DNA of 64,000 bases from Candidatus Magasanikiibacteriota bacterium (GCA_041665405.1 JBAYIZ010000005.1:2513-66512), one strand, 5' to 3'; positions 1-18,991 are shown, counted from the first letter of the stretch. Notes: generated by a model from the letters alone, not told the origin. Made by a program: numbers and translations.

Positions 1-3
1 AAT

Positions 4-777
4 CTATTTTACTACCCACGTACTATCTGGAGAATTTGATAAAAAACTTTTTGCCAACACTCTACCATAAGGCGATGTAGCAATTTTAGTTCGGTCATCC
101 AACTTCTTTTCATCATCTTCCAAAAATATTTTATAAAGCGGCTCCAAGATATTACTTCCATTTAATAATCGCCAAATAAGAGTGTTATAAACACGATGAT
201 TATCATGAAGCCAACCCGATACTTCGTCATTGGCAAATTCACCAGTACAATCACAGTGATTTGGATCCTCCACTCCCATCATACATAGGTTGTTGGCAAT
301 TCCATTCATATCTCCAGTTTTTATTTCTTGTTCAAAATCATTGTACCATTTTTGTATTTCTAAGGGAGCTTTTTTGATATCAATTGCTTCTTCACGCGTT
401 TCCAAATCGTTATTAATAATATTCATTTTAAAACAGTTGGCACGACCAGAAAAAATTTTTTTAATATTATCAATTAAACGTTGAGCTTTTTCATTTGAGA
501 TATTTACAAAAGTTACACCACTAGCATCGTCCCATGTCTCAGTAATTGCTTGCATTGCTTCTATACTTATACCTAGCGTCACATGTCCGGACTTATTAAG
601 GTAATCAATTAAATCATCTTGCACACCAGCTTGATCCGGTGAACCAACAAAATGGATTACTAATGTTGCCCCAACTTGTTCTCTTCTCTCTGAGTTGGTT
701 GGTTCAACTAGGTGATCATGACTAATAGGAGATCTATCTGACATATAGGAATTTATTATATATAATTTTGAGTACAA
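4..777 (-). CDS. hypothetical protein; C-terminus runs off the window edge (no stop before position 1)
   Basis: 257-aa ORF on the minus strand. No motif I recognise. Leftmost cassette of the array; an extended -10 (tgttataat) lies upstream on the minus strand. Confidence 0.35.
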   Translation of the reverse strand: MYSKLYIINSYMSDRSPISHDHLVEPTNSERREQVGATLVIHFVGSPDQAGVQDDLIDYLNKSGHVTLGISIEAMQAITETWDDASGVTFVNISNEKAQRLIDNIKKIFSGRANCFKMNIINNDLETREEAIDIKKAPLEIQKWYNDFEQEIKTGDMNGIANNLCMMGVEDPNHCDCTGEFANDEVSGWLHDNHRVYNTLIWRLLNGSNILEPLYKIFLEDDEKKLDDRTKIATSPYGRVLAKSFLSNSPDSTWVVK

Positions 778-803
778 CTAGATTATAACATAATAGTCAA
801 AAT

Positions 804-860
804 AAAAAAGACGCCTTTTGATAAAAGCGTCTTATTCTGTACAGTGAAACTGGGTAGTTA
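804..860. repeat. cassette-boundary direct repeat R1: terminator-like hairpin AAAGACGCC..GGCGTCTT plus a divergent tail
   Basis: aaaaaagacgccttttgataaaagcgtctt is identical to the hairpin 3' of the tRNA at 8226. The tail tgtacagtgaaactgggtagtt is related to the tails of R2-R4. Confidence 0.6.
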
Positions 861-1286
861 TTAAGACGACCAATTCTCTCTAATGCACCATCTTTCATCT
901 TTTTGTATAACACTAATCTCAAACCAACCTGGCGGGTCAGAAGAATCAAATCGAAATACGAAAGTAGATGGATTACTACTAAATCGTACAAACTTCATCT
1001 CGAGCATCATCTTAGCTATACTATCTCGCCCGATTTCTCCAAAATCTGTATAAAAACGTTGTTCATCATCGGCGCGCTCAACATCACAGAGCACATCCGA
1101 TGGATATTTGAACGGTTCGATTTTTATTGCGTTCGCATACGATATTAACACGGAGCGCGTTTCGACTTTGTTTCGAATATATTTAATAGGATGTTTCATC
1201 CAGATCCAAATTGTCAACATTAATACACCCACCACTATTAACAGTAATAATATCAACTTTGATTTAAAAATTTTGAGATTATTCAT
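861..1286 (-). CDS. hypothetical protein with N-terminal membrane anchor
   Basis: 141-aa ORF with a hydrophobic N-terminal stretch (LILLLLIVVGVLMLTIWIW). No recognised domain. Confidence 0.4.
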   Translation of the reverse strand: MNNLKIFKSKLILLLLIVVGVLMLTIWIWMKHPIKYIRNKVETRSVLISYANAIKIEPFKYPSDVLCDVERADDEQRFYTDFGEIGRDSIAKMMLEMKFVRFSSNPSTFVFRFDSSDPPGWFEISVIQKDERWCIRENWSS

Positions 1287-1363
1287 ATTTGTTTCAGACA
1301 GGACTAATGCAAACTAATGTTTTACAATTTTGTATCAATCGGGTTTAATATAATTATTTATTT

Positions 1364-1609
1364 TTATAATTCATTTTTTATGTCCTCCCATTTTACTCCA
1401 CTAATTTTCTCAATTTCTTTTAACAAATAATACAGAACATCTTTTCTTAATTTTGATTGAATTGTAATTGATTTCTGAGTTTTAATCCATGTAGCTTTGT
1501 AATGACTACCGTCACCACCAGCTGTATCAATTATAAAACCGAGCCTTTGAAGAGCTCGGATAAATTTCCTACGCTTTATTTCTCCGGGTAAATCACTAAG
1601 CGAGGGCAT
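1364..1609 (-). CDS. hicA: HicA-like toxin of a type II toxin-antitoxin pair (mRNA interferase family)
   Basis: FIRALQRLGF...GGDGSHYKAT resembles the HicA GSH core. The track ORF extends to 1675, but the internal ATG at 1609 gives a typical 81-aa HicA and a 14-nt overlap with the upstream partner. Confidence 0.5.
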   Translation of the reverse strand: MPSLSDLPGEIKRRKFIRALQRLGFIIDTAGGDGSHYKATWIKTQKSITIQSKLRKDVLYYLLKEIEKISGVKWEDIKNEL

Positions 1610-1925
1610 ACTCTTCCTGTCTATCAGAAGTTTTGTAAATTTTGGCCTCTTTAGCGAACGAAGATGGTATATCAAAAGAAGTTAAAATTGCATCTTTAAC
1701 ATTTTCATCTAGTGTTTTCAAATCCTTACCAGAAGTTACTATTGAACCATATCTAAAATTGGTGCTAACTGCAACAATCATTCCGTCTTTCCCTTTTTCA
1801 TTTTTAAAATTAATCGGATCGTATAAACGAAAATATTGGTTTAATTCAAATAAACCCCTTGGTACAAATGATTTACCAAATAAAAATTTTATTAACTGAT
1901 CTTGGGCTTTTTTAGTTATAGACAT
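1596..1925 (-). CDS. hicB: HicB-like antitoxin (UPF0150/RNase-H-like fold), tentative
   Basis: 109-aa protein immediately upstream of and overlapping hicA. GMIVAVSTNF-RYGSIVTSGKDLKTLDENVKDAI loosely matches the HicB N-domain pattern. Confidence 0.4.
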   Translation of the reverse strand: MSITKKAQDQLIKFLFGKSFVPRGLFELNQYFRLYDPINFKNEKGKDGMIVAVSTNFRYGSIVTSGKDLKTLDENVKDAILTSFDIPSSFAKEAKIYKTSDRQEEYALA

Positions 1926-1995
1926 ATATTTATCGACTCACTAATATAACAATTTTTTACTAGTAAGTCAAGTATACCATAAACATAAATAATAC

Positions 1996-2170
1996 AAAAG
2001 ACCGCCCGTTGCCTAAATACAGAAACCAATTCTGAACTTAGGCAAGTGCGGGCGGTCGAGTGTCTGACCATATTCCCTTCCTTGTCTGACCTGGCGGTCA
2101 TAGGACGTCCTTTCGGACGGAACGACGGTCAACGTCGCTCTACCCCACCGTATTTCGGAGGATGGGGTGC
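1996..2170 (-). repeat. conserved ~175-nt GC-rich highly structured element, copy 1 (3' UTR of GC-rich ORF 2180..2509)
   Basis: About 90% identical to 7258..7430. On the minus strand it folds into: a hairpin CCCCAUC/GGUGGGG; a hairpin CGACG/CGUCG; a GAAA-tetraloop hairpin UCC-GAAA-GGA; GACC-GCCA-GGUC; GGUC..GACC; and a long terminal hairpin GACCGCCCGCACUUGCCUAA...UUAGGCAACGGGCGGUC followed by UUUU. Confidence 0.6.
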
Positions 2171-2179
2171 TTTTGATTA

Positions 2180-2509
2180 TCAGGCCTTCTTCCTTGGAGG
2201 GAAGATGTATGCGGACTCAGGCGAAAGAAGCCACCGATGATAGGACATCCGCATCGCCTCTGGATTTTGTCGAATTGACAGGGTAGTATCGAACCACTGC
2301 TGATAGGCTCGATTCAAGGCGTCCCCGTCTTTGCGCAACGTAGCGAGCGCAACTTGAGCCTCCTTTCGCCACACCGCTTCCTTCCTTTCTTGTGCTCTTC
2401 TAGGTTCATCCTTGGCGTCGTTGATGAACGGCAAAAACGCTACATACGCCAGGATCCAACAAAGCGCCAAGCCGAGAGTGATAGCACCCATTGCCTCGAG
2501 AATCTCCAC
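2180..2509 (-). CDS. GC-rich small membrane protein, hypothetical (foreign composition)
   Basis: 109-aa ORF with a GGAGG ribosome-binding site and an N-terminal transmembrane helix. Its Ala/Arg/Gly-rich, high-GC codon usage contrasts with the AT-rich flanks. Confidence 0.4.
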   Translation of the reverse strand: MEILEAMGAITLGLALCWILAYVAFLPFINDAKDEPRRAQERKEAVWRKEAQVALATLRKDGDALNRAYQQWFDTTLSIRQNPEAMRMSYHRWLLSPESAYIFPPRKKA

Positions 2510-2735
2510 GATTTCCTCCCTACTTCAGTGCAAAAACAAACAACAAGTTCTGCTGAGACAAACGCAAAGCAAAAAAGTTGTTTACAAAGCCAGTTCGTGT
2601 CTGAAGATTTAATTCTGCAAACATAAACTGGCTTTTGTTTTAGAGGGAATTATTAAAGAACTAATTAATTAGATAGTACTATCTATTATAGTGAGAAAAG
2701 ACAATCCAGTTGTGTATCTCTATTAAAATTTCTTA

Positions 2736-3311
2736 TCAAATATTCTTTAAAATAATATTCAATACATTATCCCAATCCATCCGACTGGTATCAATAGAAA
2801 ATATTGGCATTGCTGATTCACTAAATAATTTTTTAAGATATTTCTGTTGTTCTATATAATAATTAACTCTCTCTTCAAGCGTTCCTACTTTCTTGTGTTT
2901 CCAAGTTGCACCTCGTTGTTTATCTGCCAATTCAATTCGGTTTGATATATAATCATCTTGCATTCTTAATAAAATTGTAATTGGGTCAAAACAATTCAGT
3001 ACCTCATTTTCTAGACCAGAAAAAATGTTTAACTTTGAATTAGTTCTAAAAGCATGAGTGATAAATAATCGTTCGACAATAATGTAGCTGGTTGAAATCT
3101 TTTTAATGTTTTCAATAACATTTTTTAGATACTCTACTGCTTTGAGAGGATCTCTGTTTTCAAACAAGGGAACAGTGGTTTCTTCTTCAGAAACAAAAGT
3201 GATCTGATGTTTTTCTTGAAGATGTGATATCAGGTTGGATATGGTGGTTGTTTTGCCAGATGTTGCTATACCTTCAAAAATGATAAGTTTTGGTTTTGAG
3301 ACATCTTTCAT
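2736..3311 (-). CDS. P-loop NTPase / nucleotide(nucleoside) kinase-like protein
   Basis: Walker A motif IIFEGIATSGKTT near the N-terminus; 191 aa; overlaps the upstream ORF by 4 nt (operon). Confidence 0.5.
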   Translation of the reverse strand: MKDVSKPKLIIFEGIATSGKTTTISNLISHLQEKHQITFVSEEETTVPLFENRDPLKAVEYLKNVIENIKKISTSYIIVERLFITHAFRTNSKLNIFSGLENEVLNCFDPITILLRMQDDYISNRIELADKQRGATWKHKKVGTLEERVNYYIEQQKYLKKLFSESAMPIFSIDTSRMDWDNVLNIILKNI

Positions 3312-3811
3312 AATAATAACTTTTGCACCTTTTCTTCAAAACTTTTGTAATGGTAATGCATTGGAAAAGGAATGACGACACCATTATTTAAAACATTAAA
3401 ACCGTCATCACATAAACGTTTTTCTAATAACTGACAAACTGTCTTTTTGGCCAGCATCAGATTGACTTTTTTGTCACCAATAATACCTTTTAAATCATCC
3501 ACAAAATTCGAATAATTTTTTAATATCAGTTCATCAGCCTCTTTGTCTGGTAATTTGTCTACTGGAATATAAATAGGATCAACTAAAAAATATCCGCTAT
3601 TGGCGAAACAAGTAAGACCGTCGTGTTTAGTGTTAAATTTTTTCCCAAACAAACATTTCATTAATGACCGAAACAGTAATTCACTTGGCCTACCATCTGG
3701 GTTGTAAAAATAACCACCACCCGTAGGAAGAGATTCAAAAATAAAGATCGTTTTAAGCGACTTTGGTAGATATTGATTGCGTAATTTTTTATAGGATGAC
3801 TCTGAAGTCAC
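3308..3811 (-). CDS. hypothetical protein, co-transcribed with the P-loop kinase
   Basis: 167-aa ORF whose stop overlaps the downstream start by ATGA. No recognised motif. Confidence 0.4.
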   Translation of the reverse strand: MTSESSYKKLRNQYLPKSLKTIFIFESLPTGGGYFYNPDGRPSELLFRSLMKCLFGKKFNTKHDGLTCFANSGYFLVDPIYIPVDKLPDKEADELILKNYSNFVDDLKGIIGDKKVNLMLAKKTVCQLLEKRLCDDGFNVLNNGVVIPFPMHYHYKSFEEKVQKLLL

Positions 3812-3835
3812 AAAATTATTTTTAAATAAATATAA

Positions 3836-4099
3836 TTATTTTACTTCCAATTCTTGCATTCTATCATTTAAAACAGAATCTAAATCTTTTATTCCCAATT
3901 GAGAAGCAAGCACGAACGCTCCATAAAAAACATTAGCAATTCGCAGTTCAATATCTTTGTTATTTTTTGAAGCAACCCAAAGTTTAGTCAGCGACTCTTG
4001 AGATCCCAATATACATTCTTCAATATTAATCGGACTATTCTGACGAATAAAATTATCTTGTTTTTGAATGATTTGCAAGTATGAAGTAAGGGTTGTCAT
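3836..4099 (-). CDS. MazG-like nucleotide pyrophosphohydrolase (small all-alpha NTP-PPase)
   Basis: The C-terminal ELRIANVFYGAFVLASQLGIKDLDSVLNDRMQELE matches the MazG/NTP-PPase helix pair (E..ADVL.YL..LA..LGIDLE). The track ORF starts at 4192, but the first 31 codons are AT-rich low-complexity sequence, so ATG 4099 is more plausible. Confidence 0.45.
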   Translation of the reverse strand: MTTLTSYLQIIQKQDNFIRQNSPINIEECILGSQESLTKLWVASKNNKDIELRIANVFYGAFVLASQLGIKDLDSVLNDRMQELEVK

Positions 4100-4219
4100 A
4101 AAATAATCGACATGAATATAATAAATCAAAGTAATATTATCAGATAATATATAAAAACAAAAGACCGCTACCAAGTGCTGATTTACAAACACACTAACAT
4201 ATTTAATAAAAAATGCAAC

Positions 4220-4293
4220 AAAAAAGACGCCTCTTTTAAAAGCGTCCTACATTGTGCAGCCGATCGGGTAAGGTAGCAAACTATTTTTGAGAT
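4220..4293. repeat. cassette-boundary direct repeat R2
   Basis: aaaaaagacgcctcttttaaaagcgtcc hairpin variant followed by tacattgtgcagccgatcgggtaaggtagcaaactatttttgag. Confidence 0.65.
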
Positions 4294-4297
4294 TATT

Positions 4298-5962
4298 TCA
4301 TCTATTATTCTGAGATATTCTTATGAAATTTTGTTTTAATAATTCATTTTTACTCATGTCTACTAATTCAGATAATGACGGATTTCCTTGATACAGAGTC
4401 CATGCATACAATGGTGTATATCCATTCCTCCTCATCCAACCAGAATGAAACTGGCCTCTAGTACGAGTAGGTAGCGATTGCCACTTAGAAAATGCCTCCT
4501 CTAATTCTTGCAAACTGAATTCAACTGAACGTTTCTGGTGCTCTCTCTGATCCTGTTTATAAAAATTCTTCTTCAAATTTTCGTCTTTACTCAAAACCAC
4601 TATATCCTCAATAGACAAACTCTTTTTCCTAGCCCATTCAACCAATCCTTTATACCCATTATGACTAAGCCAACCACGTGAAAATCCTTTCTTGTGATCT
4701 GACGTCCATTTTTTAAAAGCATTCTCTAATTCAGTTAAGGCGGATTCCATGTTTCGAATTATTCCTGGATGATACTCCTGTTTTATAAAACTATCTTTTA
4801 ATTCTTGATTATTACTGTTAACGACCAATTCTGTTAATTTTGGATTTTCACCCCTTTTTGTCCATGCATATAAATTTTCGTAACCATTTTTCCTTAACCA
4901 GGCAATACTAAAATTACCTCTTTCAATTTCTTGACACGTTTTATAAAGTTCAAATGCCTCTTCCAATTCAATGGTAGCGGAATACAAATCACGATCTTTG
5001 CCTTCATATGTTTTAAAACTATCTTTCAATTGTTGATTTTTGCTTTTCGCCACTAATTCTTCAATTGATAGATTAATTCTTTTGCCTTTTGAATCTTTCC
5101 TATATGTCCAAGACGTTAAAGCTATATGATTGATACTTAACCAACTAATATTAAAATCTCCTCTATTCTTTATGGGCAAAGCCAACCACTCCTGAAAAGC
5201 ATTCTCTAACTCTACCAAAGCAGTTTCAGGCGTTCTATTTTTCATCTCAGATATTTCTTTCGAAGATTCTCCAGTTTCAGTCGATTTGGATATTAATAAT
5301 CTAACAATTTCTTGTTTCCACTCATCCGATGATTTATTAAAAATTACCATTGAAACTTTGTCTGAACCCAAAGATTTCAATTGATTTTTTGTATACTCAC
5401 CATACTTTCTCCAATCCTCTTTTTCAACATCATGGACTACAAATGTAGCATTTCCTTCTTCGTTATTTACTAAAACTAACTTCTTTATTCCAGGAATTAC
5501 AAAAACTTTGTAGCTTAACCTCCTCATCATATTGGGTGAATTCACACCATCGTGTACCTCATATTTCAAATCTAGGTCACTGAGAATTTCAATAAGAAAT
5601 CTTGTTCTCGGTAAAATATCTTTCTCTTCTATACCAACTCCACTTCCAGGAATGATTTCCCCTTCATCAGGAGGTAGAATTGTCTCATTTTCTATCACAA
5701 TCAAATCTGGCATTAACAATGGATTCAATTCTTTTTTTACCCTTAATTCTTTTACAAAATTATTTACATCTAAATGCAGGACTGGAGCTTTATTTCGACC
5801 AACGTCAATAATACTGAGGTAATTTATGGCTCCTAACATTTCAGCTATTGTTCTTAGGCTACTATTTGGATTAGACCTAATGAGGGTAAAAATTCTTTGA
5901 CTAATTTCAAAAGATAAAGCCTCTTGAACTATCTCTGAATTTTGTTCATCGTATTGAGACAT
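4298..5962 (-). CDS. large hypothetical protein: N-terminal domain of unknown function plus five tandem ~48-aa C-terminal repeats (helicase-associated-domain-like)
   Basis: The repeats ELENAFQEW..G.FS..WL..NGY..L..W recur five times. ELE(N/E)AF...G.F..GWL resembles the HA-domain consensus. The N-terminal domain has a possible PD-(D/E)xK-like VVHDVEK. Confidence 0.5.
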   Translation of the reverse strand: MSQYDEQNSEIVQEALSFEISQRIFTLIRSNPNSSLRTIAEMLGAINYLSIIDVGRNKAPVLHLDVNNFVKELRVKKELNPLLMPDLIVIENETILPPDEGEIIPGSGVGIEEKDILPRTRFLIEILSDLDLKYEVHDGVNSPNMMRRLSYKVFVIPGIKKLVLVNNEEGNATFVVHDVEKEDWRKYGEYTKNQLKSLGSDKVSMVIFNKSSDEWKQEIVRLLISKSTETGESSKEISEMKNRTPETALVELENAFQEWLALPIKNRGDFNISWLSINHIALTSWTYRKDSKGKRINLSIEELVAKSKNQQLKDSFKTYEGKDRDLYSATIELEEAFELYKTCQEIERGNFSIAWLRKNGYENLYAWTKRGENPKLTELVVNSNNQELKDSFIKQEYHPGIIRNMESALTELENAFKKWTSDHKKGFSRGWLSHNGYKGLVEWARKKSLSIEDIVVLSKDENLKKNFYKQDQREHQKRSVEFSLQELEEAFSKWQSLPTRTRGQFHSGWMRRNGYTPLYAWTLYQGNPSLSELVDMSKNELLKQNFIRISQNNR

Positions 5963-6088
5963 TTTGATGAGGTTAAATATAGAAATATTATATCTGTTTT
6001 ATGTTTAATTGTCTATTTATAAAATAAATTAATGCGCAAAAAAACTACAATTTGAGTGGCAAACTCCATTTCAGCAGTTAATAGAGAT

Positions 6089-6164
6089 AAAAAAGACGCC
6101 TTTTGATAAAAGCGTCTTTACATGTGCAGCCGATCGATTAAGGTGGTAAACTATTTTTGAGAAT
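6089..6164. repeat. cassette-boundary direct repeat R3
   Basis: aaaaaagacgccttttgataaaagcgtctttacatgtgcagccgatcgattaaggtggtaaactatttttgagaat. Confidence 0.65.
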
Positions 6165-6175
6165 TTAAGATAATA

Positions 6176-7108
6176 TTATTTAATATCTTTGCGTTCCAAA
6201 ATATCAAACCCGTCTTTTACCGCATCACACAAAAAATTTTCCAACTGGCTATTGTCTTTTTTAGTTTGAGCTTTATATAAAAAAGTATAATATAAACGCT
6301 TCTGTTGTTGGTGGATAATCGCCGGAGCAAAATTTTCTTTCAATAACATAGCTGTCATAAGCAGACGGCCAACACGTCCATTGCCATCGGAAAATGGATG
6401 AACTTGTTCAAACTGTCTGTGAACATCGGCGGATAACGAAATAATATCACTGGTAGATTTTGAGGCTAAGATTATAATCTCTCCAACCAGTTTTGGCACA
6501 CTCATAAAATTAGCAGTCGCCAGATTCACTCCCAAAATTCTCACGCCATGTTGACGATACAAACCGGCATCAGATTGAATACCGTTCATCAAAATACTAT
6601 GCAATTTCAATACAAAGTTTTCATCAATTTTTTCTTTCTTAAGAATATGACTAAACAAATAATTTAAAGCAGTTTGATGATTCTTTGCTTCCATTTGTTC
6701 AGCCAAACTTTTATTTGGCAACGCTACATTATCAAAAATAACAGCCGCAGTGTCTGGTTCAGTCAAGGTACTACCCTCGATGCTATTACTATGGTAGGTC
6801 AGCTTTAAGATAAGCTGGTCGCGAATATCTGGGTTATTCAAAATCTCCGCTACAATATTTTTATGTTCAGAAGATTTTTTGTTTAGAAATTGTTTTTTGG
6901 CAATCAATTGATTGGATGGAATAACTTTCTGGCCAGTCATTTCCAAAAACAATTCATCGATAGCTATCTGCATTTTTGTTCTCGGGATAGACTTTTCATT
7001 CCACCAATTATTGAAAGCCACAAAAGACACGCCGAGTTTATCGGCCAATTTGGTCTGGGAAAGGCCAGACATCTTTTGAATAGTCTCAAGTTTTTGTTTA
7101 ATTGTCAT
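6176..7108 (-). CDS. Fic-family protein (AMPylase/Fic-Doc fold) with an N-terminal XRE-type HTH
   Basis: Canonical Fic motif HPFSDGNGRVGRLL. The N-terminus MSGLSQTKLADKLGVSFVAFNNWWNEK is an HTH_XRE. Confidence 0.8.
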   Translation of the reverse strand: MTIKQKLETIQKMSGLSQTKLADKLGVSFVAFNNWWNEKSIPRTKMQIAIDELFLEMTGQKVIPSNQLIAKKQFLNKKSSEHKNIVAEILNNPDIRDQLILKLTYHSNSIEGSTLTEPDTAAVIFDNVALPNKSLAEQMEAKNHQTALNYLFSHILKKEKIDENFVLKLHSILMNGIQSDAGLYRQHGVRILGVNLATANFMSVPKLVGEIIILASKSTSDIISLSADVHRQFEQVHPFSDGNGRVGRLLMTAMLLKENFAPAIIHQQQKRLYYTFLYKAQTKKDNSQLENFLCDAVKDGFDILERKDIK

Positions 7109-7170
7109 AATAATGTCATTATATCAAACTTTATAAAGTTTGTCAAATATTGGTATACTTTATAAAGTTA
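7109..7170 (-). promoter_or_regulatory. Fic promoter with a twice-repeated 14-bp palindrome (putative autoregulatory operator)
   Basis: On the minus strand: TTGACA-N17-TATAAT, then 9 nt to the ATG (near-leaderless). The perfect palindrome AACTTTATAAAGTT overlaps the spacer (7126-7143), and a second copy, ACTTTATAAAGT, is at 7157-7168. Confidence 0.5.
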
Positions 7171-7171
7171 T

Positions 7172-7247
7172 AAAAAAGACGCCTTTTGATAAAAGCGTCT
7201 TTATATGTGCAGCCGATCGGGTAAGGTGGCAAACTATTTTAGAGAAT
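7172..7247. repeat. cassette-boundary direct repeat R4
   Basis: aaaaaagacgccttttgataaaagcgtctttatatgtgcagccgatcgggtaaggtggcaaactattttagagaat. Confidence 0.65.
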
Positions 7248-7257
7248 ATTTAAAAAC

Positions 7258-7430
7258 AAAAAACCGCCCGTTGCCTAAATACAGAATTCAATTCTGAACT
7301 TAGGCAAGTGCGGGAGGTCGAGTGTCTGACCAATTCCCTTCCTTGTCTGACCTGGCGGTCATATGACATCCTTTCGGACGGAACGACTCTCAGCGTCGCT
7401 CTTCCCCACCGTATTTCGGAGGATGGGGTG
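7258..7430 (-). repeat. conserved ~175-nt GC-rich structured element, copy 2 (3' UTR of GC-rich ORF 7440..8114)
   Basis: Same hairpin series as copy 1. The differences fall mostly in loops: UUGACC vs CUGAGA in the second hairpin loop. Confidence 0.6.
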
Positions 7431-7439
7431 ATTGGTGGT

Positions 7440-8114
7440 CTAGTCTTCGACCACCTTAAATGGCGACGGCCGGTTACCCATGACAATCGCCGAGAAAGAC
7501 TCAACCGTAACTTGCCCGTTGGGCGAGATCACGGTCAACTTCTCAATGATTCTCAGGGCATCGACCACAGTCAGCCGAAGCCGGCTTCCGTAATCGCCCT
7601 GATAGAGCTCAACCGATGGATGAGCCCGAAACGGTCCGAAGAAATCCGAGCGTGAAAACGAACCGAAGTACGCTTCCACACGCCATTTTCTTTCGAACAG
7701 CACCTGTCCGATCCAGAGCGTGGGGGCGACCGGCCCCCAACCCGAAAGACGCATGATGATGACGGGCTGGTCGCCGGGTTTGGATGTAGCGTATTCGTTT
7801 TGCCTGACACCCACGGAGTACGGAAAGATCTGGCGCACCAGTTTCCCTTCCGCGTCCAGCTCAAACTGAGCTTTGTACCCGCGCACGTTACGCCGCCACC
7901 ACTCCCTCAGCCACCGCGTCCAACCGCCTTCATAGAAGATGCCGACCGACCAGATGGCGAAGATCCACCAAGCCGCCGCCATGGCGATGCCACTCTCCAC
8001 CTTGTAGATCAGTTCAGCGCTAATCCCGATGAGGACAGCGATGAAGACGCACAGGCAGAAAGTGCCGCAGCGCACCGGGGTCTTCGGATCCTGAACCTTA
8101 CTTTCCTTTGACAT
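7440..8114 (-). CDS. GC-rich membrane protein, hypothetical (two TM helices plus ~130-aa soluble domain; possibly bPH-like)
   Basis: 224-aa ORF with a strong GAGGAG ribosome-binding site. TM segments FCLCVFIAVLIGISAELIY and AAAWWIFAIWSVGIFY. High-GC codon usage. It is the sole cargo of the tRNA-proximal cassette. Confidence 0.45.
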   Translation of the reverse strand: MSKESKVQDPKTPVRCGTFCLCVFIAVLIGISAELIYKVESGIAMAAAWWIFAIWSVGIFYEGGWTRWLREWWRRNVRGYKAQFELDAEGKLVRQIFPYSVGVRQNEYATSKPGDQPVIIMRLSGWGPVAPTLWIGQVLFERKWRVEAYFGSFSRSDFFGPFRAHPSVELYQGDYGSRLRLTVVDALRIIEKLTVISPNGQVTVESFSAIVMGNRPSPFKVVED

Positions 8115-8190
8115 GGGTTCTCTCCTCGTCAGATGATTTGACGGGTTAAAAATTATTATACATTCTAAAAAATCATTTGTCTATCAAAAT

Positions 8191-8225
8191 AAAAAAGACG
8201 CCTTTTGATAAAAGCGTCTTTATTG
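8191..8225. repeat. R5: the native copy of the repeat hairpin (tRNA terminator), abutting the tRNA 3' end
   Basis: aaaaaagacgccttttgataaaagcgtctttattgtgca runs directly into the tRNA acceptor stem. Confidence 0.65.
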
Positions 8226-8297
8226 TGCACCCATTAGGAGTCGAACCTAAATTTTCGGCTTCGCAGGCCAATGTCCTATCCATTGAACGATGGGTGC
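8226..8297 (-). tRNA. tRNA, hand-folded as tRNA-Arg (anticodon GCG); anticodon call tentative
   Basis: Reverse complement: GCACCCA-TC-GTTC-AATGGATA-GGAC-A-TTGGC-CTGCGAA-GCCGA-AAAT-TTAGG-TTCGACT-CCTAA-TGGGTGC-A. All four stems pair. U33 and A37 are present. No encoded CCA. Confidence 0.75.
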
Positions 8298-8311
8298 AGG
8301 AACTTTTTCAA

Positions 8312-8815
8312 CTAAATTTTCAATATCCGCCCCATGCGTTCGCTTAACGGCTCTTCTTCTTGGTCGAGATCTTCTTCCAAATATAGAGCCAAATATTCAC
8401 GAATTGGCATCGGATCATAATCGTACAGCGGCACTTGAATACGGTGATTCAACACATTGTCTTGTGAAAAATATAGATTCTTGGTAAACGGTGGGTTGTA
8501 TATTACCCAAAAACCTGTTAGTTCACTATAGCGGTAGTATTTTTTCCCAATCACTACTCCAGTATTGGTGACGGCAAAATAGACATCCATCGGCGCTACC
8601 ATATCTTGCATGAATAAAATTATCCCAAACAAAACTGTAATTAGCGCAAACAGATAATTGCCGGCTATCACTCCATATACGGACAGGGCAATCCCGAGTC
8701 CTCCCATTATCCAATACCATTTTTGACTGCGGTCGTGCGATTCATACTCCTTCACCGTCCACTCATATTGGACTTCTCCAATATTTACTTCCTCTTTTAA
8801 AATATTTTTTGGCAT
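8312..8815 (-). CDS. hypothetical membrane protein
   Basis: 167-aa ORF with two central hydrophobic helices (WYWIMGGLGIALSVYGVIAGNYLFALITVLFGIILF). Lies between the two tRNAs. Confidence 0.4.
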   Translation of the reverse strand: MPKNILKEEVNIGEVQYEWTVKEYESHDRSQKWYWIMGGLGIALSVYGVIAGNYLFALITVLFGIILFMQDMVAPMDVYFAVTNTGVVIGKKYYRYSELTGFWVIYNPPFTKNLYFSQDNVLNHRIQVPLYDYDPMPIREYLALYLEEDLDQEEEPLSERMGRILKI

Positions 8816-10499: not shown

Positions 10500-11871
10500 T
10501 ATGGCCACACTAGCAAAAATAGTGAACCTCGAACTGCCTACTATCGCCCTTGTCGGCCGTGTAAATGTAGGCAAATCTACTTTGTTCAATCGTCTCACCG
10601 AAAGTGATAAGGCGTTGGTTTCTGATATCCCTGGCACCACTCGCACTCGCAATGAAGGCAAAGCCATTTGGCGTGGCAAACATGTTCGAATTGTCGATAC
10701 TGGTGGTCTGACATTTTCTGATGACGTACCTTTGGAAAAAGAAATCATTATGCAAACCGAAGCCGCTCTCAAAGAGGCGGATGTGATAGTGTTTGTGACG
10801 GATATCAAAGACAGTCTATTGCCTCAAGAAAAAGAACTAGCCAAATTGCTTTTACAAAAAAAGAAAAATTGCCCAGTGATTTTGGTAGCCAACAAAGCAG
10901 ACAGTCCAGTAGAAAACGCCTTAAAATATGAACGTGACTGGCTCAAACTTGGACTAGGTGAACCGATCGCAATTTCTGCGCAAAACGGTTCTGGTCTAGG
11001 AGATCTAATGGAAGAAATTTTTTCACACTTAAAAAAGACTTTGAAAAAACCTCAAGTTTTGCCAGACATCGAACCTATCAAAGTTGCTCTACTTGGAAAA
11101 CCAAATGTTGGCAAATCTTCTTTGTTCAACAAACTTATCGGCGAAGACAGAGTGATAGTGAGCGATATGCCTCATACTACTCGCGAACCACATGATACGC
11201 TGGTAGAAGTAGACGGTGAACATATTTTGTTTATTGATACTGCTGGTATTCGTCGCAAAGCCAAAGTTGGTGGTTTGCTCGAACGTGTCGGCATAGGCAA
11301 AAGTATCGAAGTGATGAAACGCGCTGATATCGTTTTGTTTTTGCTAGACACTTCCTCCCCTATTACCGACCAAGATCAACAGCTAGGTGGATTGTTGCGT
11401 GAGAGTACCAAGAGTGTTATTATCGTGGTCAACAAATGGGATCTCAGTGAAGACAACACCGATTCTTTCCGCAATGATGTGAAAGAAAAAATCATGAAAT
11501 ATTTTCCACATATTGCTTATGCGCCGATTGTGTTTGTGAGTTCCAAAACTAGTTACCGCATTCACCAATTGTTCCCTTTGATAAAACAAGCGTGGGAAGA
11601 AAGACATACCGAACTTTCTGAAGAGGTTTGCGAAGAATTTATTCGCCATGTCACCAAAGATCATTTGCCATCTCGTGGCAAAGGTGTAAATCATCCAAAA
11701 ATTTTGGGCTTCCGTCAGATCAATGTTAACCCACCGATTTTTGAATTGTTTATCAAATACAAAACTTCTTTGAACATGTCTTATGTTCACTACCTAGAAA
11801 ATCGTTTGCGTGATCAGTTTAGTTTTTTTGCAGCTCCGATTGTTATTAAGTTAACTAAAACTAGAAGATAA
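10486..11871 (+). CDS. der: ribosome-biogenesis GTPase Der (EngA), two tandem G domains
   Basis: Two G domains, IALVGRVNVGKSTLFNRL and KVALLGKPNVGKSSLFNKL, plus a C-terminal KH-like domain. The likely start is ATG 10501. Confidence 0.85.
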   Translation: MKINNMATLAKIVNLELPTIALVGRVNVGKSTLFNRLTESDKALVSDIPGTTRTRNEGKAIWRGKHVRIVDTGGLTFSDDVPLEKEIIMQTEAALKEADVIVFVTDIKDSLLPQEKELAKLLLQKKKNCPVILVANKADSPVENALKYERDWLKLGLGEPIAISAQNGSGLGDLMEEIFSHLKKTLKKPQVLPDIEPIKVALLGKPNVGKSSLFNKLIGEDRVIVSDMPHTTREPHDTLVEVDGEHILFIDTAGIRRKAKVGGLLERVGIGKSIEVMKRADIVLFLLDTSSPITDQDQQLGGLLRESTKSVIIVVNKWDLSEDNTDSFRNDVKEKIMKYFPHIAYAPIVFVSSKTSYRIHQLFPLIKQAWEERHTELSEEVCEEFIRHVTKDHLPSRGKGVNHPKILGFRQINVNPPIFELFIKYKTSLNMSYVHYLENRLRDQFSFFAAPIVIKLTKTRR

Positions 11872-12586: not shown

Positions 12587-13666
12587 GTGAACTACCAAGT
12601 TCTTTTGGCGCACTTCCCCAAAATTACTTATGCGCGTTATACTCGACTTAAAGCGCGTTTTTTTGATTTTAAGGATTTGTGGCAAGCGGAGTTGGACGAA
12701 ATAGTGAAAGCCGGTATCGAAGAAAATATTGCATTTGAATTTTTAACTTGGAAAGATACTAATCCGGCTGAAAAAATTTTTGAACGATTAGAAAAAGAGG
12801 ATATCAAAACTACATGTCTAGGCGAACCAGATTATCCGACATTATTATCTCAAATCTCCGATCCACCACATACTTTATTTTATCGTGGACAACTTCCTCC
12901 AGACGAACAACCAAGCTTAGCGGTGGTAGGCACGCGACGAATTACCAGTTATGGAAAAATGGTTTGTGAAGATTTGGTTGGACCGCTGGCCGCGCAAGGA
13001 ATTGTGATTGTTAGCGGATTGGCATTGGGTATTGATGGTGTCGCCCACTCAGCCACATTGAATGTACATGGTACTACCGTGGCAGTTTTGGGAACAGGTA
13101 TAAACAAACAAAATGTTTATCCTGATGCTCACAAAATTTTGGCACAAAAAATTATTGATAATGGTGGTGCGATATTGTCTGAATATCCACCCGGATTTTT
13201 GCCGACTCAATATTCTTTTCCGGCACGCAATCGGATTATCGCCGGTCTTACTTTGGGTACTCTAGTTATTGAAGCTCCAATTAAATCTGGTGCTCTGATC
13301 ACCACTCGCTGTGCTTTAGATTATAATCGTGAAGTATTGGCGGTGCCACACGCGCTCACTTCTCCCACTGGTGCAGGGCCGAATAATTTAATAAAACAAG
13401 GTGCAAAATTGGTGACGGAACCAAATGATGTTTTGGAAGCATTAAATCTACAATCAATAAAACAAACTACACCCACAAAAAAATTGGTTGGCGCCAATCC
13501 GACTGAAGAAAAAATTATTCATCTGCTGACCAAGGAACCAAAAAATATTAATCAGATAATTTTGGAAAGCCAGCTAGATAGCCCAACGGCGAGTTCCACT
13601 TTGGTGCTGATGGAAATCAAGGGATTGATAAAAAATTTAGGCGGGATGAATTATGTGAGGAAATAA
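12587..13666 (+). CDS. dprA: DNA-processing protein DprA (Smf)
   Basis: LAVVGTRRITSYGKMV...IVSGLALGIDGVAHSATL Rossmann-like DprA core, plus a C-terminal winged-helix tail. Confidence 0.8.
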   Translation: MNYQVLLAHFPKITYARYTRLKARFFDFKDLWQAELDEIVKAGIEENIAFEFLTWKDTNPAEKIFERLEKEDIKTTCLGEPDYPTLLSQISDPPHTLFYRGQLPPDEQPSLAVVGTRRITSYGKMVCEDLVGPLAAQGIVIVSGLALGIDGVAHSATLNVHGTTVAVLGTGINKQNVYPDAHKILAQKIIDNGGAILSEYPPGFLPTQYSFPARNRIIAGLTLGTLVIEAPIKSGALITTRCALDYNREVLAVPHALTSPTGAGPNNLIKQGAKLVTEPNDVLEALNLQSIKQTTPTKKLVGANPTEEKIIHLLTKEPKNINQIILESQLDSPTASSTLVLMEIKGLIKNLGGMNYVRK

Positions 13667-17962: not shown

Positions 17963-18991
17963 ATGATTATAGTCGCCTCCGTTGGAGTAAACTCTCTAAC
18001 CGATGAAAAAATTAGAAAAATGATTTTGGCTGGGGCTGATATATTCCGCTTTAATTTTTCTTATCGTTCAATAGATGAAAACATAAGAAATATTGAAACT
18101 ACACAGGACGTTATATCTGATTTACACGCTGGAACCAAAATATTATTTGATTTACCGGTTAAAAAATACCGACTTGGCTATTTTGATTTGAAAGCATTCG
18201 CAGTTAGAGAAAATGAAGAATTTATTTTCAAATACGCTTCTTATTCTCCAGATTGCAATGAGTTTATACCAGTAAATATTAATCAAATTGGCAATAAGGT
18301 TGATATAAATCAAACGGTTACTATCAGCGATGGCGAAATCGCCATACAAATAACTGAGATAATCGATTCCAATACGATTAGAGCAAAAATTCTTAACAAT
18401 GGAATAATCTATTTCAACAAATCTTTTAATATCAAATATTATCGACCTGAACAAGAATTATTAACAGAATACAAACAAATAATTGAACAAACAAAGCATT
18501 TGGAACCAAATTACATTGCCGTACCATTTATAAACGCAAATTTTAACATCGAATTTAAAAATCTTATCAAACAACAAAACATCAATACTAAACTAATAAT
18601 AAAAATTGAACACCAAATTGACGAGGGAGAATTAAAATCAATCATTCAAGACACAGACTACGACATGATATTGATGGATCGTGGCGAAATGGGAGTGAAT
18701 TTGCCGTTTGAAAAAGTCGGATTGTGGCAAAAGCATATTTGTATGATTGCAAAACAATATAAAAAGAAAATCCTAATTTCAACACAGATATTAGAAAGTA
18801 CAATCAATAATTTTGTCCCCCACCGCTCAGAGATTCTTGATCTTACTAATATGATTTTAGATAGAATAGACGGCATCATATTTTGTCATGAGACAGGTTT
18901 TGGTATGCGCCCGGCATATTCTATTCATGTCGCAAAAAAAATAATAAATGAAGTAGAAAAACACATAAATAACCACAAACAAAGTGAATAA
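17963..18991 (+). CDS. pyruvate-kinase-like protein (barrel A/B domains only; no C-terminal regulatory domain)
   Basis: N-terminus IVASVG...ILAGADIFRFNFSYRS resembles the pyruvate kinase (PK) K.VCTIGP...AGMNVARLNFSHG. KLIIKIEHQIDEG matches the PK signature (IISKIENQEG). MDRGEMGVNLP and ISTQILESTINN..P.R.E..D..N...DGID..FCHETGFG match PK ARGDLGVEIP and TQMLESM...P.PTRAE..DVANAVLDG.D.VMLSGETA. Confidence 0.55.
   Translation: MIIVASVGVNSLTDEKIRKMILAGADIFRFNFSYRSIDENIRNIETTQDVISDLHAGTKILFDLPVKKYRLGYFDLKAFAVRENEEFIFKYASYSPDCNEFIPVNINQIGNKVDINQTVTISDGEIAIQITEIIDSNTIRAKILNNGIIYFNKSFNIKYYRPEQELLTEYKQIIEQTKHLEPNYIAVPFINANFNIEFKNLIKQQNINTKLIIKIEHQIDEGELKSIIQDTDYDMILMDRGEMGVNLPFEKVGLWQKHICMIAKQYKKKILISTQILESTINNFVPHRSEILDLTNMILDRIDGIIFCHETGFGMRPAYSIHVAKKIINEVEKHINNHKQSE

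Follow-up and report, generated by a model that had tools for sequence, protein, structure and literature searches.

How did a series of small, unrelated genes come to lie in one orientation behind a single tRNA gene, several of them ending in the same repeat? The question is raised by one end of the window, the 64-kb stretch of Candidatus Magasanikbacteria (CPR) DNA analysed here, which is part of a 73.9-kb contig. The initial annotation proposed serial site-specific integration at the tRNA 3' end. We interpret the region, with a probability of roughly 0.6, as a hotspot of site-specific integration, where a genomic island has grown by tandem accretion behind the 3' end of tRNA-Arg(GCG). Islands of this type are already known; apparently none has been described in the Ca. 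Magasanikbacteria group.

The ~75-bp repeat, announced in five copies, is real, with an exact hairpin at four sites, a diverged one at the fifth (4224–4248, with a 1-nt indel), and a ~35-nt "tail" at three (Table 1). The copy at 8191 is, as proposed, the terminator of the tRNA itself, a terminator also found behind tRNA-Arg in relatives (L005, L007, L015, and L011). This native terminator, together with the preceding TGCACA, recurs four times and inside the island only (at 802, 4217, 6087, and 7170), which we count as evidence for the hotspot. The hairpin (AAAAGACGCCTTTTGATAAAAGCGTCTT) matches exactly at 806, 6091, 7174, and 8193, and has no additional match at three or fewer mismatches in the 64-kb window (chance expectation, 0). 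The conserved tail (GCCGATCGGGTAAGGTGGCAAACTATTTT) belongs to three of the four extra copies, at 4259, 6129, and 7212 only; the copy at 802 lacks it and carries TGTACA (838–843) in place of TGCACA, its hairpin matching the tRNA copy with identity extending 7 nt past the T run.

When the copies are aligned, their shared core starts at TGCACA, which comprises the final 4 nt of the tRNA and a further 2 nt. Upstream of this point the tRNA copy runs on as tRNA and the tail-bearing copies run on as tail. Element-side copies read CTGCACA and the tRNA reads GTGCACA, a difference that puts the crossover no earlier than that base. In a structure comparison of the copies, the conserved fold is confined to the terminator and the tail is unpaired, which fits a DNA-level site. 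A further module, P', adjoins repeat copy 2 to form an attP-like tail-core-P' junction. The junctions of the array recur in independent JGI and Logan contigs (L003, L004, and L035), so the array is not an assembly artefact. The tail and P' each contain TCTCAA...AGTTTGCCAC in direct orientation, and may be protein-binding arms.

Table 1. Features of the island and its anchor, listed outward from the tRNA (window positions).
Feature	Position	Strand	Evidence
tRNA-Arg(GCG), intact; anchor (attB side)	8225..8297	-	ARAGORN; Rfam tRNA, 62 bits
Core copy 0: TGCACA (8224-8229), intrinsic terminator hairpin (8194-8221), T run	8189..8229	-	Sequence comparison of copies
Promoter-like site of K224 cassette, TAGACA-17-TATAAT	8155..8183	-	Consensus match
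K224: GC-rich 224-aa membrane-type ORF, nearly orphan	7440..8114	-	GC 0.57, third-position GC 0.72
180-nt structured 3' module, copy 1, ending in its own terminator	7253..7433	-	
Repeat copy 1: tail (7213-7247), CTGCACA (7206-7212), hairpin (7175-7202); distal end of K224 cassette	7170..7247	-	
Predicted Fic promoter, TTGACA-17-TATAAT (12/12 match), AACTTTATAAAGTT palindromes on both sides	7118..7169	-	Consensus match
HTH-Fic protein, 310 aa	6176..7108	-	Pfam Fic, E 1e-17
Repeat copy 2: tail, CTGCACA, terminator; distal end of Fic cassette	6087..6164	-	
P' module, TTATCTCTATTAACTGCTGAAATGGAGTTTGCCAC	6050..6086	-	
Promoter-like site of 554-aa gene	5987..6015	-	Consensus match
554-aa protein, internal repeats of ~75 aa	4298..5962	-	
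Repeat copy 3: tail, CTGCACA, diverged terminator	4217..4294	-	
Ghost cassette	4142..4216	-	
Three-gene unit: 87-aa MazG-like (weak), 167-aa ORF, 191-aa P-loop dNMP-kinase-like (weak)	2736..4099	-	
E109: GC-rich 109-aa ORF	2180..2509	-	
180-nt structured 3' module, copy 2, 93% identical to copy 1	1991..2172	-	
Promoter-like site of HicB/HicA pair	1943..1971	-	
Presumed HicB (1596-1925) and HicA (1364-1609)	1364..1925	-	
141-aa ORF, hydrophobic helix at N-terminus	861..1286	-	
Repeat copy 4: hairpin (808-833) after TGTACA, no tail	802..845	-	
246-aa ORF, still within the island	4..744	-	

As in a tandem integrative island, the array begins where an intact tRNA ends (3' end, at 8224), and core direct repeats, which include only 4 nt of the tRNA, lie at unit boundaries. 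Every plausible ORF is encoded on the minus strand, as originally described; ten of the 11 lie between repeats, and the 246-aa ORF lies past the last copy. Each unit has its own promoter-like site right after the preceding T run, and those immediately preceding K224, Fic, and the 554-aa gene match 11–12 of 12 positions (consensus evidence only). The full tail and core end only three of the ~9 transcription units of the island, and the four units between 834 and 4216 have no repeat separating them. The base composition of the cassettes is foreign to the host. In the ghost cassette, what is left of the promoter and 5'UTR of the cytidine-deaminase cassette is joined to the final ~30 nt of the 180-nt module and the beginning of a tail.

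Of the defence and addiction cargo initially suggested, HicA (28 bits against a cutoff of 27) and Fic stand, the MazG-like and P-loop kinase matches fall under Pfam thresholds, a family search gave no match for the presumed HicB, and PADLOC returned one weak match.

The island extends ~940 nt past window position 1. An integrase had been suggested as possibly lying left of the window; what is found there is a further pair of small GC-rich ORFs, then a 182-aa gene, tuf, and the S10 operon, and no recombinase is encoded there, in the island, or elsewhere in the 73.9-kb contig. The empty site was mis-specified as the tRNA followed by the ORF at 8312, an ORF located on the opposite (5') side; distally, the island is in fact flanked by the 182-aa gene and tuf.

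Related genomes show that occupancy of this site varies. Measured from the conserved 167-aa gene immediately before tRNA-Arg to the 182-aa gene and tuf, the span is 1.1, 1.4, 2.0, 2.3, 4.4, 8.7, 9.3 (the Magasanikbacteria genome under study), and 9.8 kb in eight genomes, with different gene content each time. L010/L019 carry a 2.6-kb element with a gene for a large serine recombinase (Resolvase, Recombinase, and Zn ribbon domains) on the reverse strand, adjoining the tRNA. This element is inserted exactly after ...GGGTGCACA|, and its far end, GCGCTGCACA|, is followed by the displaced native terminator. Additionally, a 160-bp insert in L008 lies between perfect 33-bp direct copies of the tRNA 3' end (CTCCTAATGGGTGCACAAAAATAAATACGCCAT; 16 nt of tRNA included), and L158 has a partial tRNA 3' end (~18 nt), TGCACA, and half a terminator before a cassette. 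TGCACA is invariant at seven junctions from five genomes. The proposal of serial integration is partly supported, by a tRNA-anchored hotspot of variable content and by TGCACA junctions in L010/L019, L008, and L158, and lacks a recombinase in the contig itself.

The same cassette also occupies different positions with the same ends. The Fic cassette is first in L011, second in the genome under study, and late in L010, and in these three genomes homology runs from its promoter to the tail, CTGCACA, and terminator; the HTH-Fic homologues in L010/L011 are 87–91% identical. Its left end, which includes the promoter, is conserved in L010, L011, L020, and L021. The frame of P', gene, and tail surrounds three unrelated genes, encoding Fic, the 554-aa protein, and a 752-aa helicase. 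Cassette left boundaries fall right after the T run of whichever terminator precedes; a deaminase cassette is preceded by three different upstream sequences in different genomes.

We propose that the attachment core would consist of TGCACA and the intrinsic terminator of the tRNA, and that small incoming elements would bring a matching core flanked by an element-side arm (the tail), some with P' as a second arm beside the core. Every tRNA-adjacent insertion would duplicate the core, displace earlier cassettes from the tRNA, and set their orientation. Older core copies would decay (as at 4217 and 802), and cassettes may be lost by deletion, as the ghost cassette suggests. Small cassettes that each end in the terminator of the tRNA are best read as the scar pattern of repeated site-specific insertion at one spot, and the tail-type cassettes probably entered by such recombination. 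The cassettes resemble cis-mobilizable or decayed elements; because they encode no recombinase, the enzyme would have to work in trans, unless it has been lost. In the present chromosome, the repeat doubles as a terminator insulating each promoter-gene unit.

Several findings count against a hotspot. The tRNA and cassette copies share ~40 nt of identity, including an identical hairpin, which far exceeds the 6 nt that the ends of the L010 serine-recombinase element have in common. No recombinase is present in the contig, full tail and core ends are few, the Fic gene also occurs without the tail in L020 and in an unrelated chromosomal context in L021, and no circular or excised form, or element-borne attP outside a chromosome, was seen. 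Gene conversion or homologous recombination could be another source of the long identity and the genome-specific hairpin.

An explanation by homologous rather than site-specific recombination is the most serious alternative; we regard it as unlikely. The repeated terminator and conserved linkers would serve as portable homology through which DNA imported from related strains swaps, adds, or deletes cassettes (cf. the minimal mobile elements of Neisseria and capsule-locus switching), with gene conversion maintaining uniform repeat copies. This accords with a hairpin that is uniform within a genome (four copies in the genome under study, two in L011) and different between genomes, with long shared tracts (40–130 nt for tail-core-P'; 180 nt at 93% identity for the GC-rich 3' module), with dprA in the window (12587–13666) and a contig lacking a recombinase, and with the internal deletion behind the ghost cassette, which is not a site-specific event. 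However, it leaves the origin of the tRNA-end duplications unexplained (the 33-bp repeat of L008, the partial tRNA of L158, and the TGCACA junctions of L010); cassettes such as that of the deaminase sit after non-homologous terminators in different genomes, and the constant C/G difference one base ahead of TGCACA points to a fixed crossover.

A hotspot at tRNA-Arg also agrees with known accretion systems. The ssrA islands of Dehalococcoides are tandem, delimited by repeats (20 bp) of the 3' end of ssrA, and have a conserved element-side motif beside the repeat that does not align with the RNA gene, as well as, at attL, a CcrB-type serine recombinase encoded on the reverse strand; many of their units lack an integrase and are read as cis-mobilizable (McMurdie et al., 2011; PMC3146451). 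Integrase-less units are, as CIMEs, accepted members of such arrays (PMC3146451; PMC5704250), and the CIME accretion model has been reviewed (PMC5704250). Here too, tandem units lie directly downstream of a small stable-RNA gene and are bounded by its 3'-end repeat, with the tail as counterpart of the element-side motif; the large reverse-strand serine recombinase beside attL is seen for the Magasanikbacteria site in the relatives L010/L019. Unlike in Dehalococcoides, integration is at tRNA-Arg and not at tmRNA, the repeat in this genome includes just 4 nt of the RNA gene plus the terminator, most units consist of one gene, measure 1–2 kb, and have their own promoter (vs. multi-gene islands of 10–30 kb), and the island has no integration module.

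Tandem stacking at one attachment site with decayed older units is likewise shared with CIME/ICE/IME arrays (Pavlovic et al., 2004; PMC5704250) and with SCC composite islands at rlmH, arrays in which recombinase-less elements keep attL and attR. Unlike CIME/ICE/IME arrays, the Magasanikbacteria island has no conjugation or mobilisation genes, far smaller elements, and a CPR host, and is only putatively mobile. The tycheposon islands of Prochlorococcus arise by serial tRNA integration (10.1101/2020.12.28.424599), and have in common with this locus a streamlined genome, tRNA-seeded islands in which later arrivals displace older elements inwards, scars of partial tRNAs, and decayed remnants. Tycheposons have tyrosine recombinases and replication modules and duplicate ~40 nt of tRNA, whereas here there is only a serine recombinase, in relatives, and the duplicated segment is mostly terminator.

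That the repeat is no more than a regulatory module in repeated use (a strong terminator plus a conserved element of the 3' UTR), copied with genes or repeatedly selected and without a role in gene arrival, is improbable. The hairpin is a textbook intrinsic terminator, every unit starts with a promoter-like site after the preceding T run, and further 3' modules are common to unrelated genes, all as this explanation would have it; however, the repeat starts not at the hairpin but inside the tRNA, at TGCACA, no RNA structure is conserved in the tail, the unit is restricted to the variable island in the sequences searched, and at the same base relatives have a recombinase and true att-type duplications.

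A dispersed REP or generic terminator family was also considered and rejected: there are no copies outside the island in the 73.9-kb contig, and every copy in ten related 20-kb loci lies either at tRNA-Arg or within the island. Among JGI metagenome contigs, the one match to the repeat is the tRNA copy of a relative; neither repeat nor tail was found in viral contigs.

Like integrons, the island has co-oriented, compositionally foreign cassettes at one entry point, each ending in a hairpin-containing site. The integron likeness initially noted nevertheless fails on three counts: there is no IntI, attI, or Pc beside the array, which is flanked by tRNA-Arg and by the 182-aa gene and tuf; on inspection of the aligned copies, the site is a sequence-conserved, near-perfect terminator hairpin identical to that of the tRNA, not attC; and the cassettes are not promoterless, judging from the consensus matches upstream of K224, Fic, and the 554-aa gene. 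Least probable of all is integron-like capture, in which a recombinase encoded elsewhere would act on folded hairpins (the terminator or the 180-nt module as attC analogue) and stack single-gene cassettes in one orientation from a fixed tRNA-side entry, as co-oriented single genes or small operons ending in shared hairpin-bearing modules, foreign composition, and left boundaries immediately after the preceding T run might suggest, but against which stand the lack of an IntI-type gene in the contig, of RYYYAAC/GTTRRRY cores, and of the imperfect-palindrome design of attC, the promoter-like sites of the cassettes, a repeat conserved in sequence and not in structure alone, and a serine recombinase as the only recombinase seen at the site in relatives.

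A more unusual side observation concerns the two GC-rich genes (GC 0.53–0.57), which are confirmed as real. These nearly orphan cassette genes have structured untranslated modules in common that are absent from Rfam, and other 3' modules are likewise common to unrelated genes.

The terminator hairpin of the repeat is exact at four places in the 64-kb window, with no further match at ≤3 mismatches (0 expected by chance), and a fifth copy carries a 1-nt indel (Table). On the minus strand, each copy reads TGCACA, 4–6 variable nucleotides, the hairpin, and a T run. Where the copy ends tRNA-Arg(GCG), TGCA constitutes the final four bases of the tRNA; three non-tRNA copies carry a tail (a segment of ~35 nt) in its place, found nowhere else in the window; and the copy at 802 is tail-less and has TGTACA instead of TGCACA. 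The repeat is present as initially annotated (exact hairpins, tail, and tRNA junction), and independent JGI and Logan contigs show the same junctions. A JGI metagenome scan for the hairpin returned one locus only, which limits the population evidence. Short contigs of the same population from other assemblies (L003, L004, L035) start in or beside the repeated terminator; such breaks are expected of an assembly-graph repeat, and limit the reading of population variants. The terminator GACGC-TTTTATCAAAAG-GCGTC, or a close variant, natively ends tRNA-Arg in several related species; thus, the additional copies here are duplicates of host sequence. A dispersed REP element, the reading that the initial annotation set against its own, is dismissed by the restriction of the repeat unit to the island in every sequence examined.

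The tail is not a partial tRNA: the window holds no second match to the 3' half of the tRNA (≤3 mismatches), and the resemblance in alignment is weak, so that at best the tail may be a very diverged tRNA mimic. A DNA-uptake-type motif was rejected because the tail decamer AGTTTGCCAC is confined to the island, and an RNA structure because conserved pairing is absent.

The island extends ~940 nt beyond window position 1 (surrounding contig of 73.9 kb searched, ENA ERZ27249449 k141_1224158). This stretch, proposed earlier as a possible location of the integrase, instead encodes two further GC-rich ORFs, both short; a gene for a 182-aa acidic protein comes next, then tuf and the S10 ribosomal operon. 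No recombinase was found left of the window or elsewhere on the contig. All credible ORFs share the strand of tRNA-Arg, as annotated. A promoter-like site directly follows the preceding T run in each unit (12/12 positions for the HTH-Fic gene; 11/12 for both the GC-rich 224-aa ORF, K224, and the 554-aa gene), so that the array consists of successive promoter–gene–terminator units, each self-contained. The attribution of a defense/addiction character to the cargo holds for HicA and HTH-Fic, which are securely assigned, but not for the MazG-like protein and P-loop kinase, which are sub-threshold; the other cargo proteins have no family match, and PADLOC defense annotation gave one weak match only. 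The 554-aa protein has 4–5 internal repeats of ~75 aa (period 225–237 nt) and nothing above Pfam thresholds. Rfam searches of the window, island, and related loci, at gathering and permissive thresholds, returned tRNAs only.

Coordinates and sequences of island features (plain numbers, window; L numbers, related loci or contigs)
Feature	Coordinates	Strand	Sequence
tRNA-Arg(GCG)	8225-8297	minus	
Hairpin, exact	806, 6091, 7174, 8193		AAAAGACGCCTTTTGATAAAAGCGTCTT
Hairpin, 1-nt indel	4224-4248		
Tail	4259, 6129, 7212	plus	GCCGATCGGGTAAGGTGGCAAACTATTTT
Distal (tail-side) cassette end			...GCCACCTTACCCGATCGGCTGCACA-terminator
Left end of K224 cassette			ATTTTGATAGACAAATG
Left end of Fic cassette			ATAACTTTATAAAG
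Fic cassette	6176-7169 (gene and promoter)		
554-aa gene	4298-5962		
P' module	6050-6086		TTATCTCAACTAAC..GAAATGGAGTTTGCCAC
Ghost cassette	4142-4216		
33-bp direct repeat	L008 1241-1273, 1434-1466		
Inverted T-arm copy	L010 ~10695-10720		GGTTCGACTCCTAA
GC-rich ORFs	7440-8114 (K224), 2180-2509; L002 10858-11061, 11283-11513 (left of the window)		
Shared leader	L002 11197-11285; L005 596-683; L007 12014-12102; L008 1490-1573; L010 18590-18675; L011 19549-19633; L012 14367-14454; L015 2087-2175	minus (L005)	
AAGGAG-loop 3' module	L007 10998-11077, 12350-12429; L012 14254-14353, 14714-14813; L015 1968-2015, 2413-2460; L002 11085-11230		
180-nt 3' module	1991-2172, 7253-7433; L010 ~18390-18560; L012 ~11195-11335; L158 ~810-950		
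Nucleotide-metabolism GC-rich cassettes	L011 13753-17473; L010 17412-18385; L156 1095-3672		

Ten Candidatus Magasanikbacteria MAG loci were found via a conserved 167-aa gene immediately upstream of tRNA-Arg; three of the ten carry the record label Gammaproteobacteria. Eight loci have the same flanks, namely the 167-aa gene with tRNA-Arg and, opposite, the 182-aa gene with tuf. From the 167-aa to the 182-aa gene, the distance is 9.3 kb in this genome and 1.1, 1.4, 2.0, 2.3, 4.4, 8.7, and 9.8 kb in the others, with largely different gene content. An empty site consisting of the tRNA followed directly by the ORF at 8312, as previously specified, is wrong.

In two near-identical loci (L010 and L019), a 2.6-kb element begins after the tRNA at GGGTGCACA and ends in ...CTCCTGAGCGCTGCACA, after which the displaced native terminator follows. 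Adjoining the tRNA, on the reverse strand, the element carries the gene for a large serine recombinase with Resolvase, Recombinase, and zinc-ribbon domains. Within the 3' end of this gene, ~100 nt from the tRNA, 14 nt of the tRNA-Arg T arm recur in inverted orientation. L008 has a 160-bp GC-rich insert, itself holding an inverted T-arm-like stretch, between the two copies of a perfect 33-bp repeat in direct orientation that comprises the last 16 nt of tRNA-Arg and 17 nt beyond (half its terminator). The cytidine-deaminase cassette of L158 is preceded by a partial tRNA 3' end (ACTCCTAACGGGTGCACA) and half a terminator. Across an alignment of seven junctions from five genomes, TGCACA is invariant; G precedes it in the tRNA, and C in element-side copies.

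The Fic cassette (87–91% protein identity) directly follows the tRNA in L011, comes second in this genome, and is a late unit in L010, with homology extending from the palindrome-flanked promoter to the tail, CTGCACA, and terminator; the promoter palindromes (AACTTTATAAAGTT) are retained in every context. HTH-Fic has ~2,900 relatives at E ≤ 1e-40, including proteins of ~75% identity in MAGs that their sources assign to various CPR groups (Parcubacteria group, Kaiserbacteria, Uhrbacteria, and Staskawiczbacteria). A further module, P', follows the terminator four times: once in L011, behind the tRNA; twice in L010, behind the recombinase element and ahead of Fic; and once here, between Fic and the 554-aa gene. 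The P'–gene–tail arrangement surrounds three unrelated genes, and both tail and P' contain TCTCAA..AGTTTGCCAC in direct orientation, the decamer being island-only. Given this framing, the shared motif, and a tail without conserved fold, tail–core–P' (the core being TGCACA plus terminator) resembles an attP-type junction joining stacked elements. There are signs of decay as well: the copies at 4217 and 802 have diverged, and in the ghost cassette a promoter and 5'-UTR remnant of the cytidine-deaminase cassette (present in L010, L015, and L158) is fused to the last ~30 nt of a 180-nt module and to where a tail begins. A phage origin found no backing in viral contigs, where the terminator, tail–core, and tail gave no match; a 15-nt P' pattern gave >120 chance matches and was uninformative, a 17-nt linker gave 10 matches, and the single match to the 180-nt-module loop was a phage ribosome-binding-site context and was discarded.

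We infer that the region arose by tandem accretion through site-specific insertion at a tRNA attachment site (probability roughly 0.6). The serial integration proposed initially stands in outline (a variable island with TGCACA junctions), though not in its integrase location or empty-site form. The cassettes of this genome would be recombinase-less units, cis-mobilizable or decayed, with the repeat now serving as the terminator of each unit. The closest published parallel is the ssrA islands of Dehalococcoides, in which tandem units, many of them integrase-less, are bounded by repeats of the RNA gene 3' end with a conserved element-side motif, and a CcrB-type serine recombinase lies on the reverse strand at attL (PMC3146451); the CIME accretion model (PMC5704250) and tycheposon islands (10.1101/2020.12.28.424599) are additional precedents. 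Accretion is weakened by a contig that lacks a recombinase, by the lack of any circular form seen, and by Fic genes that are tail-less (L020) or elsewhere in the chromosome (L021). Gene conversion or homologous recombination through shared linkers is an unlikely, though credible, alternative; it could also explain the long identity tract, which likewise weakens accretion and is uniform per genome (the hairpin is identical in four copies here, and L011 has two copies of another variant). All remaining readings combined are still less probable.

The tRNA-Arg island is a new member, from a poorly studied group, of a known class of island. CPR genomes are tiny, and their routes of gene gain and loss are little documented; this locus supplies a specific entry site, apparently lineage-wide (tRNA-Arg, then TGCACA and terminator). 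The candidate att arms, together with the large serine recombinase of relatives as candidate enzyme, could serve as an integration tool for organisms without genetics. The locus also reveals a pool of GC-rich cassette genes of host-foreign composition, encoding nucleotide-salvage enzymes and many small membrane proteins, which deserves most further attention.

The island has four such ORFs (relatives have many), with GC of 0.53–0.63 and third-position GC of 0.59–0.78 (0.23–0.36 in neighboring genes). K224 has no close relatives in a set of 5.8 billion proteins. An exhaustive search gave only three that are full-length (31–33% identity), and the gene of one is likewise GC-rich, in a contig that is AT-rich, and adjoins a tRNA. 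The 14 members of a GC-rich deaminase family all come from AT-rich CPR contigs, and no high-GC donor was found for K224 or this family. The two GC-rich proteins of the window proved unrelated to each other on comparison. GC-rich cassettes of relatives encode GTP cyclohydrolase II, an OMP-decarboxylase-like protein, guanylate kinase, cytidine deaminase, and nucleoside phosphorylase.

AT-rich promoters recur across these cassettes, as do several untranslated modules. A shared leader comprises the promoter TTGACTTTTTGGCTAAAATATGCTAT, a two-stem 5'-UTR hairpin (outer stem TCCGG/CCGG, TCCGAG/CTCGG, or TCGGG/CCCGA; inner stem GGCC/GGCC or GGCT/AGCC), and a CAAAAGGGG-type ribosome-binding site. Small GC-rich cassettes share a 3' module whose GC-rich hairpin varies in its stems but has a conserved loop containing AAGGAG; (T)TTGTGGATAGAGCAAAA / TTTGTGGATAGAGCAAAA and a terminator follow. 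The structured 180-nt 3' module occurs in five copies behind four unrelated GC-rich genes, with compensatory changes in three stems, an invariant loop (TCCGAAATA), its own terminator at the end, and a folding z-score of -5.7. None of the three structured modules is in Rfam. A broader reading, which we regard as doubtful, is that Magasanikbacteria, and perhaps other CPR lineages, maintain a dedicated cassette-capture locus beside tRNA-Arg, supplied by a pool of single-gene expression cassettes that would include GC-rich near-orphan genes. AT-rich promoters, covarying 5'-UTR hairpins, and 3' modules (180-nt and AAGGAG-loop) would be swapped among unrelated ORFs, and the modules, not only TGCACA, would be recombination sites of an undescribed integron-analogous system with its recombinase encoded elsewhere. 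The likeness to an integron proper fails, as there is no IntI on the contig, there are no attC cores, and the cassettes are not promoterless. Within single islands of relatives, one protein of 109–121 aa has both GC-rich and AT-rich paralogues.
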